Shown: in pieces, positions 757 to 22,848 of the stretch
Numbering within the stretch: position 1 is the stretch's first letter
How the letters are laid out: every line of letters begins with the position of its first letter
Source of the DNA: a virus
Taxonomy: Duplodnaviria; Heunggongvirae; Uroviricota; Caudoviricetes
Virus record (IMG/VR): IMGVR_UViG_2698536647_000011
Location: 1-27,882 of that record
Direction: 5' to 3' (one strand)
Length of the DNA stretch: 27,882 nt
Program-made: the position numbers and the translations under genes
Notes under the pieces: generated by a model
Told to the model about the DNA's origin: nothing
Databases searched by the model: none
What the model saw: the letters and a program-made list of their open reading frames with translations, nothing else

Positions 757-1686
757 AGTTCCTCCAAGGGTTGTTTTTTTGCGTCTGTCGAGTGCTTCGC
801 GCATCACGCCGAGCGCATCGGTATTGTTAACAAGTTCATCCGCCAGTCCGTTATCCAAAGACTCCTGGCCGGAGAATACTGCCGCTTCGGTGTCCAGCAC
901 GTCCTGAACAGACATGCCGGTATAAGCGGAAACCTTTTCGGCAAACATCTGACGAGTGGCATCGATACGCGTCTGGAAATCAGCACGCACATCTTTCGGA
1001 AGCTTTTCGTAAGGGTTGCCGTCGACCTTGCGATCGCCGCTGTAAATCAGCGTGACCTCAACGCCGTTAGTTTTGAGCGCAGCGCCATAGTTGCTGTGCG
1101 CCATCATGACCCCAATGGAGCCGGTTCTGGCCGTTTGTGTGACCAGCCGTCGCGATGCCGAACTGGCTATAAGCTGCCCTGCACTGCAGTTCATGTCATT
1201 GGCCAGCGCCCAGATGGGTTTGATATCGCGCATACGGGCTATAATGTCGGCGCAGTCAAACGCCCCGGACACCATTCCACCCGGCGTATCCATATCCAGA
1301 AGAATGCCGTCAACGCCGGGGTCACTGATTGCCTGCTGCAGGCGAGCAATGATCCCGTTGTAACCCGTCATGCCGGAATAAGGCTGAAGCGCACGGGTTT
1401 TACTGACCAGCGTGCCGGAAACCGGCAAGACCGCGATACCATTTGCCACCTGATAGCTGCGTGATGGACGGGGATCCATGTCATCATCCTCACCAAACAG
1501 CGCCAGCGGTTCGGCTATTTGTCCGGCATCAAGCGTGATGCCAGAGACGGTATCTGTCAGCCGGGTGATGCCCAACTGGCCAGCCAGCGCGCAAAAGAAA
1601 ACCCGCGCATAGGCGGGTTCAAGCATCAGCGGCTCATTAAAGGCCATACTGGCAATATGCGGAAGATTACGCAGCTCGTGCGCCAT
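343..1686 (-). CDS. C: Minor capsid protein C / prohead protease (S49 ClpP/SppA-like), lambda gpC-like
   Basis: 447 aa; [31 protein letters not shown]... is near-identical in pattern to lambda gpC; start overlaps portal gene 3' end as in lambda. Confidence 0.9.
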   Translation of the reverse strand: MAHELRNLPHIASMAFNEPLMLEPAYARVFFCALAGQLGITRLTDTVSGITLDAGQIAEPLALFGEDDDMDPRPSRSYQVANGIAVLPVSGTLVSKTRALQPYSGMTGYNGIIARLQQAISDPGVDGILLDMDTPGGMVSGAFDCADIIARMRDIKPIWALANDMNCSAGQLIASSASRRLVTQTARTGSIGVMMAHSNYGAALKTNGVEVTLIYSGDRKVDGNPYEKLPKDVRADFQTRIDATRQMFAEKVSAYTGMSVQDVLDTEAAVFSGQESLDNGLADELVNNTDALGVMREALDRRKKTTLGGTMPSPSASAVTTKPVDQAATQTTASAEQVTTVDTTIASVAAPVDVSAQVTAAVAAENSRIMGILNCDEAKGRESQARALAETPGMTVESAQRILAAAPQSAQARTDTALDRLMETAPGALPAGSASSDAADDLLNTPV

Positions 1687-3259
1687 CTTGCTCCTCCTCG
1701 TTTGATTTTTTCACTCCGGCCTCAAAAGCTGCAGCGGCCCATGCCGGTGGTTTCAGACCCGCAGCACGACGCTCCATGGTTTCCCGGACCTGCTGGGCAA
1801 AAATCTCCTGATAATCATCACCGCGTTTGGCGCACTCTTTTTCATACGTGCTGAGACCTGCCTCAATGAGCATGACGGCCTCCTGTACCTCTTTCAGCCC
1901 GTCAATTGCCATTCGACCAGAGCCAATCCAGTTGGCATTCCCCCAGGCTGTTCTCGCCTCCTGGAAACTGAACCGGGCTTTCGAAGGAAGCGTGACCACG
2001 CGGCGGACAATCGCCTCTTCAAGCCAGCAAAGAAACATCTGACAGGCCTGTCGGGATGCCACAAACTTGCGACGCCCCATAAAGTACGCCCAGGACTCGT
2101 TAGCACTTGCGCGTGCGGTCGAGTAGCTCATCTGCGAATAGTTTCGCGAAAGCTGCTCATACGACACACCAAGCCCAGCGGCAATATAACGCAGCAGGGA
2201 CTGTTCAAAAGTCGAGTAGCCGTTATCGGTATCCTGCGCCGACTGAAGGTTGAGAGAATCACCCGGCAACAGGTGTGGAACCCTTGCCCCACCCAGGCGA
2301 ACAGGCGCAGCTGAGTAATAGGACGCCATTTCACCGAGCCAGCCCGTAAGTTTGCTCTGCTGCTCTTTATTATCCGCGCCGAGAATAAAGTCCATCGCCG
2401 ATTGGGTATCCAGTTCACTCTCGATGGTAGCGGCATACATAGCCTTCACTATCGCGCTCTGGAGCTGGGTATTTTGCAGGGTATCGAGCATTTTCATCTG
2501 CTCCATCACGCTGTAAAACGCATTGGCCCCACGGGTCTGTCCATCCTCCATCGGTTCGAATACATGGATAAATGAAGGTCGACCGCCGGGTAGTTCGCGA
2601 GGAATGTAGGTCCAGTTCTGCGCCATCCAGCCGGGATAACCATCGTCGCTGACGTAATATCCCAGCGCAGCACCGCTATCATTTATTTTCACACCGGCGC
2701 GACAGTTCCGGGTATCACCGATATTATTCGGATTGCTGACGCGCTTCGGACTGACCATTTTGAACTGAGTACGGAAAAGACGCGTTGAATCGCTGTCCCA
2801 GGTCGCCTGCGTGCATAATTCACCGTTAAACGCGTGCATGGCCACACCTTCTCGGATCATCATCGTAAACGTTCGCTTACGCTCGGCATCAATCCCGCAA
2901 AAGTCGTCCTCGGCATACTCATTCCATGCAGCTTCCACATCCCGCGAGAATGCCCGTGAATCCTCCTCATTTATTCCCAGATAACGCCAGCTTGGTCGAT
3001 AACTGAGTCTGAAAAATGACCCGACGATGTGGTCCTGGTGGAGCTGCACGGCGTTTGCCGCGTAGCCATTATTTCGCACCAGATCGTCAGCGCGGGCATT
3101 TCCGCGAGAATAGTTGGGTAGGAGTGCGGCATCTGCACTTTCACTCGGCGGATTCCAGCCTCGCAGCTGCCCACCAAACCCGCCTCCACCGCCATGATAT
3201 CCTGCGTATTCCCGAAGGGATGTTTTCCCGTCAGGTCCCACCAAAGATGGTATTTTCAT
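1667..3259 (-). CDS. B: Portal protein (lambda gpB-like)
   Basis: 530 aa; ...[27 protein letters not shown]... and the long C-terminal half match lambda gpB closely from memory. Confidence 0.95.
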
Positions 3260-3462: not shown

Positions 3463-5384
3463 TATTCATCTCCAGATAATGCCCGCGCGTAATCCGCCAG
3501 GGTCTTGTTATTGTTACGGCTGCCTTCTTCCTCCAGCAGGCTGGCCAGAAGTGAATCAAGATTTAGCTGCCAGCGGGATATGCTTATACGCAGCGCCGCC
3601 AGTGCATAAACAAAGCAATCGAGCGCCTCATTTCGTCGTTTTTTGCTGTCCCATACGATCTTTTTCTTTCCGTCTACCCATTTTTCCACCTGCTCTTCAG
3701 CTGTTAGTTGTTGGGCCTCTGTTAGATCGTAGATTTCTGGGTTATTCGGGAAATGAACCGCTCCCGCCAGCGGCTCGTCTCTTTGCGCCACCAGCGTGAA
3801 ACGGTTATAAATCTGCTCTTTTGCGGTGTCTGTTCCTACCTCTGTGAGGTAAACACCATTCTTGTTACGCTTGCGTGGCATGTTCGCCACTGGCTTTCCA
3901 TAAACCGACGCCCCCTTTATAGGGATCACACGAAACAGACCGTGTTTTTTTGAGCGGTTGTAGACGATGGTGGGATCAATGCCGCCAATATCCCAGCAAG
4001 TGCGGGATATAACCATTTCGAGACCGTTCTGGCGCTTATACGTCCTGTTGATCGCTTCATCAACTCGAGCGAGAGTCGACTCATCATCATGACGACCCAT
4101 AATGATAATTTTGTCGATAAGCCAGCTTTCCTCTCCCGGCCCCCATCCCCAAACACGCATTTCGTAACGGTCAAGCTGGGAGTCAATACCCGCTGTCAGA
4201 TATGCCACTCGCTCCGGCACAGACGCTTCAAAGTGCTCTTTTCGTTCCGCTAAAACTTCAGCATCGGGTCGTTCACCTATTTTCGGTTCCCACGTTTCGC
4301 CCAGGGTCGTGTTAACGAAAGTTTTTCGCTTACCCGTATCACCTTTTGTTTTTATCCAGTCCTTGACGATCTGCACCCAGGTTGTGAACGGGCTATATGC
4401 GGTCCAGATGTGGAATGTAACGCTGTCAGGAGGTTCAATTTCGGTACCGGATGAAGAAAACCAGTTAAGGCCGTCTCGTGTCCAGATACCTGTTTCATCA
4501 CAAATATACCTGGCCTCCAGAAATTCCAGCTCCTGTTGTTTAATCACACAGGCATTGTGTTCACAGAGGTAGTAAACGCTGGCAGGTTCTCCCGGAGACC
4601 ATTTGAAGCCAAATGGTGTCTCTTTATCACCGAATTTCAGATACTGCTCTTCCCCACAGTGTGGGCATGGAACATGGAACCGAAGAAAATGTTCAGACTC
4701 CTTAGCAGCTCTTTCTATCTGGCACGTACCTTTGACTTTCGGTGTAGATCCGCGAATGGATTTCGGCCATACAGAACCCTCAATACGCTTATCACCCAGA
4801 AAGGTGGGAGAACCTTCTTTCTCGATGTCATCATCGAAAGCGGCGAGCTCGTCGTAGCCAGCCACATCAACTGATTTTTCACGGTAGTTTTTTGCAGCCT
4901 TACCGCCCAGGCACCAGAAACCACGACCATTCGAGAAACGCTTCATGCTCAGCGTATTGTCCCGGTGTTTTTTACCGTACCAGGGAGCAAGCGCCAGCAA
5001 CGTCGGAATATCACGAATGGTCGGTTCTACATGAGACTTCATGAAGTTTTCAGCATCACCGTCGGTTGGTAACCATATTAGGGAGTTACGCTGTTTATGT
5101 TGGATGAAATATGCGTAAACGCCGAGCAACATTTTTGAGTAGCCGACACGAGCCGATTTAACGACATTCACCTCGCGAATATAGTCATTACCCATCGCAT
5201 TCATAATTGCACGCTGAAATGGCAGTGTTTCCCAGCGCCCTTCCTGGTAGGCAGACTCTTTCGGGAGATAATAATTCTCATCTGCCCATTCAACTGCTGT
5301 TTGCGGTTGCGGCCGGTACAGCGAACGTAACCCCGCCCGCGCAGAGTGCTGCAGCCCCTTAACCTGACTGTTCGATATATTCAC
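3462..5384 (-). CDS. A: Terminase large subunit (lambda gpA-like)
   Basis: 640 aa, lambda gpA length and position between Nu1 and W; 5' end overlaps Nu1 3' end as in lambda. Confidence 0.95.
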
Positions 5385-6149: not shown

Positions 6150-6878
6150 CTATCGACGGCACTGCTGCCAGATAACACCACCGGGGAAACATTCCATCAT
6201 GATGGCCGTGCGGACATAGGAAGCCAGTTCATCCATCGCTTTCTTGTCTGCTGCCATTTGCTTTGTGACATCCAGCGCCGCACATTCAGCAGCGTTTTTC
6301 AGCGCGTTTTCGATCAACGTTTCAATGTTGGTATCAACACCAGGTTTAACTTTGAACTTATCGGCACTGACGGTTACCTTGTTCTGCGCTGGCTCATCAC
6401 GCTGGATACCAAGGCTGATGTTGTAGATATTGGTCACCGGCTGAGGTGTTTCGATTGCCGCTGCGTGGATAGCACCATTTGCGATAGCGGCGTCCTTGAT
6501 GAATGACACTCCATTGCGAATAAGTTCGAAGGAGACGGTGTCACGAATGCGCTGGTCCAGCTCGTCGATTGCCTTTTGTGCAGCAGAGGTATCAATCTCA
6601 ACGCCAAGCGTCATCGAAGCGCAATATTGCTGCTCACCAAAACGCGTATTGACCAGGTGTTCAACGGCAAATTTCTGCCCTTCTGATGTCAGAAAGGTAA
6701 AGTGATTTTCTTTCTGGTATTCAGTTGCTGTGTGTCTGGTTTCAGCAAAACCAAGCTCGCGCAATTCGGCTGTGCCAGATTTAGAAGGCAGATCACCAGA
6801 CAGCAACGCGCCACGGAAAAACAGCGCATAAAGCACTTCATTAGCAGCGCCAGATAGCGTAATGATTTTGTTACTCAT
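6150..6878 (-). CDS. Hypothetical protein (242 aa) abutting cos; no family recognised
   Basis: Long ORF; internal ATG at 6878 (MSNKIITLSGAANEV...) has RBS AAGGAAA; the annotated ORF start at 6917 lacks one. Confidence 0.55.
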   Translation of the reverse strand: MSNKIITLSGAANEVLYALFFRGALLSGDLPSKSGTAELRELGFAETRHTATEYQKENHFTFLTSEGQKFAVEHLVNTRFGEQQYCASMTLGVEIDTSAAQKAIDELDQRIRDTVSFELIRNGVSFIKDAAIANGAIHAAAIETPQPVTNIYNISLGIQRDEPAQNKVTVSADKFKVKPGVDTNIETLIENALKNAAECAALDVTKQMAADKKAMDELASYVRTAIMMECFPGGVIWQQCRR

Positions 6879-18831: not shown

Positions 18832-19065
18832 TTAGGCCGCAGTATCACGCGGCGATGCGAATACCAGGCTTTCTTTTAGGACCGGAGCCTGGCGGTGAAA
18901 ATTCTTCGTGCCTTTCTCGATAGCAGATGCCATTTCTGGAGATGCCCGGCGATTTCCGTAGGCGATCTGGTCCAGGTAACCTGGCGTCGTGTTAGCCAAC
19001 TTTGCGAGCTGCGCCCATTCGTCGGTAGTGGCGGCCTTGCGCCAGCGGTGTAGTTCAGTGCTCAT
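18832..19065 (-). CDS. Cro-like HTH regulator (YdaS/Cro family)
   Basis: 77 aa with HTH (WAQLAKLANTTPGYLDQIAYGNRRAS); divergent from cI across operator region. Confidence 0.7.
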   Translation of the reverse strand: MSTELHRWRKAATTDEWAQLAKLANTTPGYLDQIAYGNRRASPEMASAIEKGTKNFHRQAPVLKESLVFASPRDTAA

Positions 19066-19903: not shown

Positions 19904-19942
19904 ACGTCCCGAATTCCTTCGCTGTAAATTTTTAATCGCTTA

Positions 19943-20017
19943 TTAATCAATACGCTAAATAAAACCATTCAACAATTTAGCATTTTGCTATTGCGCATAA
20001 TTTAGCATCACGCTAAA
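19943..20017. promoter_or_regulatory. Left operator/promoter region (OL, pL) with three TTTAGC-N5-GCTAAA-type operators
   Basis: TTAATCAATACGCTAAA, TTTAGCATTTTGCTATT, TTTAGCATCACGCTAAA; same half-site as OR. Confidence 0.6.
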
Positions 20018-20029
20018 TTTATCCCATCG

Positions 20030-20753
20030 AAACGAAACATCGACAGCTGAGCGAAGTTAGCCAGCGGCGGACAGCAAGTCGCCTGCTTTTTAACAACATG
20101 CAGATTTACAGCGTCAATGACCTGTTAAGACCCCTACACGAAAACGTGCTGTATCACCGGGTGCGATCCGGTCGGTGAGAGAGTATCCCCGCGCGAGAGC
20201 GATAACGGCGTGAGAACGGGCAACACTGGCAGGGAGTTGGCGCTTAATGAACAAATCTTAGCTGCCCGGCTGGCAACCTACTGCCAATAACACAGCTTTC
20301 CCCGTATGAGAGGCTAACTGCGGGGCGCGGACTCGACGCGTAGTACAGGTGTAACCCGCAACACGAAGTTCGAGTGGCGTCCGTCTGGTAAGTGGCTACG
20401 GCCTGCAACTGGATGAAACGCCAAGGGTGACAGCCGGAGAGACGGCTCACAACGAAAAGAGCGCTGGCATGCAAAAAATAATCTCGCAGCCATTGCAGTA
20501 CCAAAAGCCAGGATGGAATGGCAAAACGCGGTAGTGCTCTTTTCGTTGTGGCGAAGTGCTTTGGGGTGAAGCGGCGTGGGAAATCGGTGACACGCAAAGT
20601 GGCGAACCGTACACACTGAATCACGGGGTTGGGTAGCAAGGTGGCCCACGGAAGCGCGAACGAGCGGACCGGAACACATCGCCGGGGTAACGTCCGGCCT
20701 TCACCACCAAAGCATTTCTCCCGCATCTGCGGGTAACGATAGAGGGTAAGGGG
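20030..20753 (+). ncRNA. Candidate long structured leader/ncRNA downstream of pL (no + strand ORF of 60 codons or more)
   Basis: About 700 bp, GC-rich; hand-checked ATG ORFs are all 27 codons or fewer; many short GNRA/GAAA-type hairpins; early hairpin GGCGGAC-AGCAA-GTCGCC then TGCTTTTT at about 20063-20091. Confidence 0.25.
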
Positions 20754-21050
20754 ATGATCGACGACATCAAGCGCATCGACTCAATGATAAATGCGCTTCG
20801 CAATATGAAACAGGACATCAAGCGTCAGCAGAAACTAAGTGAAATAAACAGTTTAGACCTGTCGCCGAAGCAAGCTCAAAAGCGCAATGCCGATGCTGAC
20901 TGGATTGCGATGGAACAGATTAAGCGTCGGCATGAGCTGCACGCTCTGTCTGTTGAGCTTGGGTTCGCTGAGCGCCGGGAAAGTTATGCTCCATTTGAAT
21001 TAACTGACGGGTGGCACCGATTCGACCACAAGCCGCGCGAACCTCAATAG
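20754..21050 (+). CDS. Hypothetical protein (98 aa), first ORF of early-left operon
   Basis: ORF with GAGGG RBS; charged helical sequence; not Arg-rich-motif N-like. Confidence 0.45.
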   Translation: MIDDIKRIDSMINALRNMKQDIKRQQKLSEINSLDLSPKQAQKRNADADWIAMEQIKRRHELHALSVELGFAERRESYAPFELTDGWHRFDHKPREPQ

Positions 21051-21213
21051 CCGCCTAACCAGCGGCTTTTTCATACCTGGAGTCATTTACGAGTGGCTCA
21101 AGTTATGACAACCGGCGGCCATCCACCGCCCATTGAAACACTGAATAAATGCGTTGAAGTCTTGTATTAACCGTTCCGCTGGCCTGGCGACAAGGGCAAA
21201 CGAGGGGATTGAG

Positions 21214-21483
21214 ATGAAAGGTAATACGAAGAAAACAGGCATGATCGGCTTTGGAGCATGCTGGGCACGTAAATTCTATTCACGCCAAAAGCCAATGCAA
21301 CTCCCAAGTTCTCGATCGAATGGCGGGAAAGGTTCAAACAGCCCTGAAGCAAAACACCATCGCCGCGCCCAGCAGAGATTCAACAAAACAGGCGGCATTC
21401 CTCGCGGCAAAGCCTACGTGAAAATGTACCGCCTGGGATATCGCAGCGAGAGCCGAAAAGACCTTATGCGAGCGACTCAATAG
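21214..21483 (+). CDS. Hypothetical highly basic protein (89 aa from ATG 21214)
   Basis: GAGGGG RBS 6 nt before ATG; Lys/Arg-rich low-complexity sequence; 3' end overlaps convergent gene. Confidence 0.35.
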   Translation: MKGNTKKTGMIGFGACWARKFYSRQKPMQLPSSRSNGGKGSNSPEAKHHRRAQQRFNKTGGIPRGKAYVKMYRLGYRSESRKDLMRATQ

Positions 21484-21757
21484 GTTTCAGGGCTAACGGC
21501 TGATCCTGTTCCGGCACATATCGCTCTTTGACAATAACAGCCAGTTTTTGCTTAGCCGCAGGGTCGTCATTAGATGTGACGAGTCTGTTTATCTGTTCTG
21601 AAAGTGAAAACCATCCGTGAGTATCGCAAACGTAAACCACTGATGGAACTTCACGAATAGTTGGTGGTTTTACTTTGATGTTAACCAACTGATTTGTCTG
21701 GTTAAAAGACAAAGAATCTTCACCACAAATAGGACATGGCTTAGTTACTGATTTCAT
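21464..21757 (-). CDS. Zinc-ribbon protein (YgiT/MqsA-N-like CPxCG...CxxH), antisense to early-left operon
   Basis: MKSVTKPCPICGEDS...VYVCDTHGW...; strong RBS (AAGGA, spacer 6). Confidence 0.5.
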   Translation of the reverse strand: MKSVTKPCPICGEDSLSFNQTNQLVNIKVKPPTIREVPSVVYVCDTHGWFSLSEQINRLVTSNDDPAAKQKLAVIVKERYVPEQDQPLALKPIESLA

Positions 21758-21936
21758 AGTTATTCCTTGCTGGCTGTGTGAGAACTACCAGCATACCACC
21801 GAGCCTGAAGTGGATAAAAGACAGGCACATAAGAGTGGGTTTCGCGGTGGTGAACTGCAGAGTTAAAACGCTCAACTGTGAAGATCAGCACCACGGCACC
21901 ACCAGCGAAGTTCACTCAGCAATAGTGGAGAACATC

Positions 21937-22708: not shown

Positions 22709-22848
22709 GCGAAAGCCCACCGAAGTGGGCCCGCCATGTCCGGCCTCACCGACCAAAGTTACACCGGAAACAACATTAAAACCAAAGTTAACCCAATGGG
22801 CGCTATCAATGGTCCGGGGATTCTAACACCCAAAAAAGAGGATCTCAC

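Follow-up and report, generated by a model that had tools for sequence, protein, structure and literature searches.

We analysed a 27,882-nucleotide (nt) stretch of lambdoid prophage DNA (IMG/VR virus record IMGVR_UViG_2698536647_000011; the whole stretch is called the window below) and focused on two small genes of its early-left operon, which is transcribed from pL. One encodes a basic protein of 89 amino acids (aa) and the other, on the opposite strand, a 97-aa zinc-ribbon protein; the two converge and overlap at their 3′-ends. Our main finding is that the zinc-ribbon gene is very likely a passenger other than SieB, located in the sieB slot of lambdoid phages and behind the sas/sieB control cassette. 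This identification is carried by the match of the block upstream of the gene to the sas antisense RNA of phage P22, and by covariation in a hairpin of that block. We also favor, with some reserve, a joint explanation of the locus, in which two real genes occupy adjacent N and sieB slots and the zinc-ribbon gene is expressed from a promoter in the cassette, shut off by antisense RNA, and encodes an exclusion-type cargo. The N/sieB/sas arrangement of lambdoid phages is already known; what is new is the passenger gene and its early-gene neighbor. The main elements are:

21214..21483 (+): basic open reading frame (ORF), 89 aa, ATG at 21214, 270-nt coding sequence (CDS), PHROG 29236, RefSeq WP_016247087.1
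21757..21464 (−): zinc-ribbon ORF, 97 aa, PHROG 31519, RefSeq WP_016247086.1
21464..21483: 20-nt overlap of the 3′-ends of both ORFs, convergent
21758..21835: sieB/sas-type control cassette, with a 31-nt core at 21796-21826 (−)
Cassette, + strand: antisense of the translation-initiation region, hairpin GCUGG (21769-21773)/CCAGC (21788-21792), hairpin CCAC (21796-21799)/GUGG (21810-21813), AAAAGACAGGCAC
21790..21817 (−): predicted zinc-ribbon promoter, −35 TTATCC (21817-21812), 16-nt spacer, extended −10 TGgTATGCT (21798-21790)

The block upstream of the zinc-ribbon gene resembles the sas RNA of P22

When the flanks were aligned across loci (denoted by numbers with the prefix L), the ~75 nt that precede the zinc-ribbon ATG proved to be better conserved than the coding region. 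In a sensitive search this stretch matches 140 phage records, and a 35-nt part of it is ~94% identical in lambda, P22 and many others. In lambda, P22 and Rac it corresponds to the control region of sieB, and in lambda and P22 it is located a short way upstream of that gene. The 31-nt core is found exactly in lambda, P22, SfII and SfV, as well as in all zinc-ribbon loci that cover it except the diverged L033 and L039 (the contig of L032 is truncated).

The sas antisense RNA of P22 is 127 nt long, and its sequence is given in Table 2 of a 2026 small-RNA study (PMC13397905). Its parts are a segment antisense to the sieB translation-initiation region, the hairpins UCUCG...CGAGA and ACCAC-CGAGCCUGAC-GUGGU, and the tail UAAAAGACAGGCAC (PMC13397905). 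The + strand of the window at 21753-21835 has the same design, and its 3′ half is nearly the same. It begins with UUUCAU-AGUUAUUCCUU, the antisense of the zinc-ribbon start codon and ribosome-binding site (RBS), continues with GCUGG...CCAGC and (A)CCAC-CGAGCCUGAA-GUGG(A), and then reaches the tail UAAAAGACAGGCAC. The A and A that flank the second hairpin are unpaired in the window; in most relatives they are an A-U pair.

The first hairpin, which lies next to the RBS, varies in sequence across loci while keeping its pairing. Its arms were seen as GCUGG/CCAGC, ACUGG/CCAGU, UCUUGG/CCAAGA, UCCUUUUA/UAAAAGGA and UCUCG/CGAGA; double-sided changes occur in four of the five pairs, 94% of the cells are paired, and the covariation score was reached by none of 500 shuffles. 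The second hairpin is invariant and hence uninformative for covariation. Together, the match to the sas RNA and the covariation identify the conserved block as a sas/sieB control cassette. Rfam gave no match at the module. The Rac KilS small RNA (sRNA) was considered as the conserved element and rejected, and a reading of the block as a simple promoter plus 5′ untranslated region (UTR) was dropped: the hairpins lie upstream of both the predicted transcript start and the start mapped in P22, and so we assign them to the pL-strand (sas) RNA.

Comparison with the sieB loci of lambda, P22 and Rac

As a preliminary description of this DNA had stated, the zinc-ribbon gene is antisense to pL transcription; it lies on the − strand, pL reads the + strand, and it converges with the pL-proximal gene. 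The same layout is found in P22, where sieB is convergent with gene 24 and antisense to pL (the sieB/esc/sas locus of this phage is reportedly the subject of work by Ranade and Poteete in 1993). Lambda has the same slot geometry, with N ending at 35037 and sieB at 35036, and Rac has a 4-nt overlap of sieB with ydaF, with kilR, ydaE, racC, recE and recT coming after sieB, as in the window. Convergent overlap is the normal geometry at this spot in lambdoid phages and is nothing special. The proteins in both slots of lambda and Rac differ from the basic and zinc-ribbon proteins, and the Rac copy of the core is diverged.

In P22, as in the window, the core is directly upstream of the cargo gene and a two-hairpin sas-type RNA abuts the RBS of that gene. 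Several features nonetheless set the two loci apart. The P22 cargo is the membrane protein SieB, whereas here it is a soluble 97-aa zinc-ribbon protein; no internal start like that of Esc was seen in the zinc-ribbon gene. The 3′-ends are separated by a 20-nt gap in P22 and overlap by 20 nt here, and the distance from the start codon to the core is ~75 nt in P22 compared to ~38 nt here.

A predicted promoter and a model of regulation

The distance between core and start codon bears on how the zinc-ribbon gene might be transcribed. A −35-like TTATCC or TTAACC lies inside the core, and TATGCT with a preceding TG comes directly after it; from the sequence, the transcript is predicted to start near 21783 and to have a 5′ UTR of ~26 nt. 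The curated P22 record puts P_sieB and the start of the sieB RNA directly downstream of the core. In the zinc-ribbon loci the equivalent of the P22 −10 element abuts the start codon, and thus the mapped P22 promoter cannot serve the zinc-ribbon gene. In 55 of 84 distinct core-bearing sequences, TAYnnT directly adjoins the core and the median distance to the start codon is 38 nt, whereas most of the others have no TAYnnT and a start codon ~70 nt away. These two cleanly separate geometries support the predicted promoter. The proposal that the gene has a promoter of its own is very probably correct, given that it occupies the sieB position and that the 75 nt upstream correspond to the sieB control region and P22 sas.

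By analogy with P22, in which sieB is likewise shut off by antisense RNA, we propose that the zinc-ribbon gene is most likely transcribed in the lysogen from the cassette promoter and silenced on induction by pL transcription and its sas-like antisense RNA. In the lysogen, pL would be repressed and the zinc-ribbon gene would be transcribed leftwards, against the operon. On induction, or in an infecting relative, transcription from pL would read through the gene in antisense and yield a sas-like structured RNA covering its RBS and start codon, turning the gene off. The basic protein, as the product of a pL-driven early gene, would be expected to be off in the lysogen.

Both convergent ORFs are conserved genes

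Both ORFs are real genes under protein-level selection. Each shows an excess of variable third positions in its own frame: variable sites at codon positions 1, 2 and 3 number 26/83, 35/83 and 73/83 in the basic ORF, and 46/92, 37/91 and 82/91 in the zinc-ribbon ORF. Across 19 loci (14 distinct sequences) there is no change in the lengths of 89 and 97 aa, the ATG codons, the RBSs or the 20-nt overlap, and nowhere in the module is variation lower than in the overlap. The codon-position excess and the unchanged layout show that these are not chance ORFs. The Shine-Dalgarno sequences are GAGGGG for the basic ORF and AAGGA for the zinc-ribbon ORF, which starts with ATG. A 109-aa version of the basic ORF from a TTG at 21154 is a mechanical ORF only, and the conserved start is the ATG at 21214. 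RefSeq annotates both CDSs identically in two E. coli genomes.

The relatives of each protein form a narrow family, found in Escherichia, Klebsiella, Citrobacter, Raoultella, Kosakonia, Phytobacter, Atlantibacter, Pseudescherichia and Pantoea. An exhaustive comparison of the zinc-ribbon profile with 1.84 billion representatives added only three further clusters, at ~35% identity, and all three of these loci have a convergent partner of the MKGNTK type (named after the N-terminus of the basic protein). In the distant pairs the overlap is 56 nt (L030), 20 nt (L033) and 6 nt (L034), and overall it ranges from 6 to 68 nt. A word-indexed profile search with the basic family returned close relatives only, and tblastn of both proteins against GenBank phages gave no match. 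The module is rare in E. coli, where two complete genomes aligned across it. The preliminary description had named a Lys/Arg-rich 89-aa ORF and a 97-aa zinc-ribbon ORF, each with its own RBS and sharing a 20-nt convergent overlap; all of this agrees with our data, and the conservation extends to pairing at ~35% identity.

The zinc-ribbon protein

The residues C8, C11, C44 and H47 are invariant in 22 cluster representatives, and H47 is replaced by Asp in two distant relatives. The predicted structure is confident (predicted local distance difference test, pLDDT, 86) and has four long β-strands and two helices; the protein is soluble, with a grand average of hydropathy (GRAVY) of −0.27. A Foldseek search of the model against PDB and BFVD gave nothing below E = 0.1 and no convincing neighbor, and sequence searches of PDB returned noise only. 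Neither the zinc-ribbon nor the basic protein has a family in Pfam, NCBIfam or PADLOC, and in PHROGs they fall only into the function-unknown families 31519 and 29236, respectively. Two candidate relationships of the zinc-ribbon protein were rejected. For Lar/Ral (PF14354, TIGR03655) the score is 15 bits, below the cut-offs of 28.6 and 39.6, and the alignment is confined to the CPxC knuckle. The likeness to the N-terminal domain of MqsA, proposed in the preliminary description, failed with the family models, with hhalign (probability 1.6%) and in the fold search, where MqsA was absent from the results. The features in common are an N-terminal CPxC zinc knuckle and the β-strands that follow it. 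The second ligand pair is CxxH in the zinc-ribbon protein but CxxC in MqsA, and MqsA has a C-terminal helix-turn-helix, an MqsR partner and an operon with it, none of which applies to the zinc-ribbon protein (two short helices follow its sheet).

We tentatively regard the zinc-ribbon protein as an accessory protein made by the prophage and acting in exclusion or abortive infection, an assignment that we infer from position and regulation. Several observations weigh against this and against the wider explanation of the locus. The zinc-ribbon protein has no detectable relation to SieB or to any defence family, which leaves position as the ground for an exclusion function; specifically, it has no match to PF14163 and no membrane protein character, whereas a genuine SieB encoded behind this core matches at 9e-30. 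In addition, the minimum free energy of the sas-like stretch is unremarkable (z = 0.17), and the zinc-ribbon promoter is a consensus-level prediction; a generic promoter scan called none at its threshold.

The basic protein and its leader

The basic protein has an isoelectric point (pI) of 11.5, with 22 Lys and Arg against three Asp and Glu, and its N-terminus, MKGNTKK, is invariant. It is predicted to be mostly disordered (a low-confidence model, with pLDDT 58 and a predicted template modeling score, pTM, of 0.24). In most relatives no gene stands between pL and the basic ORF, which holds the position of N and has operator repeats and a pL-like promoter about 70-130 nt upstream; in the window it comes after a phi80-type N gene and the terminator tL1A. 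For this basic and disordered protein, nucleic-acid binding is the most likely activity. It may have an early role directed at RNA, N-like or otherwise, and need not act together with the zinc-ribbon protein.

Two structures are associated with the basic ORF, one in its leader and one on the opposite strand within it, and a shared leader block precedes it:

21173..21213 (+): conserved block in the leader of the basic ORF (AACCGTTCCG), including the RBS
21182-21197 (+): leader hairpin GCCT-GGCGACAA-GGGC, whose closing pair covaries across loci
21380..21435 (−): terminator-like structure of the zinc-ribbon mRNA, inside the basic ORF, stem CAGGCGG/CCGCCUG and then UUUUGUU

The leader hairpin has the consensus GCC(U/G/C/-)-GGCGAYAA-(G/C/G/-)GGC and lies 12-27 nt upstream of the basic ATG. 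The leader block is also the recombination junction of phi80-like sequence with the module (21169-21199), and it heads other first genes in 13 of 120 unrelated loci among the IMG/VR matches listed. From its distribution, the block appears to be a portable junction and translation-start cassette. The hairpin was rejected as a nut site, as a sequence-only search of the pR side of the loci revealed neither another copy of it nor a boxA, and as the block precedes unrelated genes. The block AAYGTTCCGYYNGCC, with the covarying hairpin and the RBS, can be located at 21173-21213 in the window, at 2604-2641 in L003 and at 3963-4002 in L028. In the last of these, which is phi80 (JX871397), an unannotated ORF of ~70 aa starting MSDLELGLKIYALWF and having two transmembrane-like segments begins right after the hairpin block (~4003-4215, + in locus orientation), at a place where the record annotates the rho-dependent terminator tL1B.

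The structure at 21380..21435 may terminate the zinc-ribbon mRNA, a weak case: its tail has fewer U residues in one clade, and the hairpins of distant lineages are different. Long perfect inverted repeats (13 bp in L030) occur inside the basic-type ORFs of L030 (~550-610) and L034 (~6340-6400), where they pair KHHRR codons with TGGVC codons downstream of the zinc-ribbon stop; these may be a 3′-end structure of the mRNA of the antisense gene. A terminator-like hairpin on the + strand at 21564-21582 was dropped because it is not conserved in relatives.

Alternative explanations for the two genes

One alternative is that the two genes act as a pair. Every true member of the zinc-ribbon family that we found has an MKGNTK partner. 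Such strict partnership, which includes the ~35% identity lineages and a 3′ overlap kept at 6, 20, 56 or 68 nt, would fit a two-component self-immunity system, in which the zinc-ribbon protein is an abortive-infection or exclusion effector and the basic protein, made from pL, is a neutralizer resembling Esc; the basic gene is the immediate-early first pL gene in most loci, and P22 SieB/Esc/sas provides a precedent. However, overlapping genes are inseparable by recombination, and linkage alone could therefore explain the co-occurrence. Moreover, the partners do not always go together. The partner of a basic-like chimera in L040 is an unrelated cargo, in L145 a distant zinc-ribbon-like cargo has an unrelated and non-overlapping partner, and L004 combines a basic allele like that of the window (84% identity) with a divergent zinc-ribbon allele (57%). 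A truncated basic ORF stands beside an intact zinc-ribbon gene in L024, and in L039, from Pantoea, a frameshifted zinc-ribbon copy adjoins an intact basic gene. Judged from their sequences, these loci argue against an obligate dependence of the pair, and we consider the self-immunity system rather improbable. The same loci bear on the notion, also raised in the preliminary description, of a toxin-antitoxin module. Here the zinc-ribbon protein would be an antitoxin resembling MqsA and the basic protein would be its toxin, or the roles would be swapped. That both genes are small, adjacent and co-conserved, that the zinc-ribbon protein has an N-terminal CPxC knuckle like that of MqsA, and that other toxin-like genes (for example, ydaS and ydaT) lie nearby in Rac-like prophages speaks for such a module. 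We give it hardly any credence, because neither MqsA, MqsR nor any toxin-antitoxin family was matched (1.6% with hhalign, and no MqsA fold match), because convergent genes that are oppositely regulated, one driven by pL and the other antisense to it, are not co-expressed, and because each partner can decay alone. Of the two comparisons made in the preliminary description, the toxin-antitoxin one thus fails on convergence, opposite regulation and independent decay, and the exclusion-like one gains from the sieB slot and the sas cassette upstream.

Other alternatives assign a role to one gene only. The basic protein could be the N-type antiterminator of Rac-like prophages, with the neighboring gene irrelevant to it. 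It holds the position of N or gene 24, convergent with the sieB slot; it is small, strongly basic and predicted to be disordered, with an invariant N-terminus; a covarying hairpin is present in its leader; and these prophages have no other recognizable N. All the same, no relation to N was found in family, profile and sequence searches, and the ORF does not resemble N, YdaF or YdaG. The pR side of all loci yielded neither a boxA nor a second leader hairpin, in a sequence-only search that a very divergent nutR could escape. Since unrelated genes (kil in HK225 and the phi80 ORF) are headed by the leader hairpin block as well, it is not a nut site; a phi80 N is already present in the window; and in other phages the same slot holds acidic, helical proteins. 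We therefore regard an N-type role as unlikely. For the zinc-ribbon protein, a role in regulating prophage or host transcription through binding to DNA or RNA polymerase, in place of exclusion, is a distinctly improbable reading. Compared to these alternatives, we prefer the joint explanation given at the outset, with a sas-controlled, exclusion-type cargo in the sieB slot and an early gene in the slot of N.

Other cargoes behind the sas core

An exact-pattern scan of IMG/VR viral contigs with the 31-nt core returned at least 120 further loci (L045-L164). We could call a cargo ORF behind the core in 104 of these loci (median length, 83 aa), and the cargo ORFs of the listed and earlier-fetched loci fall into about 25 unrelated families. 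SieB is the commonest of these after the pre-fetched zinc-ribbon set. When representatives of the ten largest cargo families were scanned with Pfam, only SieB scored above the cut-off; of the other nine, one small zinc-ribbon cargo had sub-threshold zinc-ribbon matches and eight had none. For several cargoes, an overlap of 8-89 nt with the convergent first pL gene was seen. No member of the true zinc-ribbon family is among the matches listed for these at least 120 loci, which suggests that cargoes of this family are rare. In L041 (Klebsiella phage 5 LV-2017, KY271399), an unannotated 76-aa candidate ORF for a CPDC...CANC zinc ribbon directly follows the sas core; the two ORFs of this locus, of which one or both may be genuine, are at 1580-1810 (+) and 1583-1891 (−), and the 76-aa ORF is wholly antisense to a 102-aa ORF that comes after a copy of the leader block.

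This slot resembles prophage morons and hotspots, such as the P2/P4 defence hotspots and the rex slot by cI, in having a fixed position, conserved flanks, many unrelated small genes and, as predicted here, expression independent of the lytic program. Unlike in those, the conserved flank here is a sas RNA and promoter cassette that would give built-in antisense shut-off, and the cargoes are very small. It is conceivable, although improbable, that the sas core is a portable expression and self-immunity cassette for interchangeable anti-phage effectors, with the zinc-ribbon protein as an effector of new fold and the basic protein as its dedicated antidote. If so, self-immunity would operate at two levels, through a sas-type antisense RNA and a neutralizing protein.

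Taken by itself, the gene pair is of modest interest, consisting of two uncharacterized small prophage proteins in a familiar place. The sas/sieB identification provides a concrete regulatory model for a gene without homologs of known function. SieB is the sole characterized protein among the about 25 cargo families of the slot, and the 31-nt core is a cheap sequence handle for candidate exclusion genes and for sas-like antisense control in enterobacterial prophages.

Prophage setting and neighboring features

The direction of pL transcription is the + strand, as confirmed by the layout of cro, the repressor, the operators, N, kil, ydaE, recE and recT. The neighboring features are:

18832-19065 (−): cro, 77 aa
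19182-19859 (+): S24/helix-turn-helix repressor, with a terminator after it
19942-20018: operator repeats
20754-21050 (+): phi80-type N gene, DNA 98% identical to phage phi80
21049-21067 (+): tL1A intrinsic terminator, after the phi80-type N
Downstream of the ORF pair (+): kil, ydaE, racC-like ORF, recE, recT
Elsewhere (−): replication O and a DnaC-like loader; YdaT-like gene
Elsewhere in the window (−): portal, terminase, NinG

With the phi80-type N and tL1A immediately upstream, the ORF pair lies inside the pL operon, and the earlier placement in the early-left operon agrees with this layout. The order repressor, basic ORF, zinc-ribbon ORF, kil, ydaE, recE and recT recurs across genera. In similar prophages that lack the pair, N or the leader block runs straight into kil. 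Because the pair is missing from otherwise similar prophages, it behaves, in these comparisons, as a bounded insertion between two conserved junction sequences.

A few further features of the surrounding DNA deserve mention. The long leader between pL and N (20020-20753) contains an 18-nt inverted repeat (20448-20465/20533-20550), and opposite to it lies a 160-aa ORF (20244-20726, −), a doubtful protein call; at the corresponding site upstream of N in another E. coli genome, RefSeq annotates an 'ECs_2282 family putative zinc-binding protein'. The interval between the repressor and pL, a rex-like slot, holds varied candidate defence genes in L004, L020, L022/L023, L025 and L034, and its contents in relatives include a HipA_2-like protein with DUF3037, DUF6414, an SDH-type protease and a protein with a BstA C-terminal domain. 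Downstream, between the racC-like ORF and recE and antisense to the pL operon, the Hfq-binding sRNA isrB (Rfam RF01386) is matched at 22710-22807 (−) with 38.2 bits, against a gathering score of 35.

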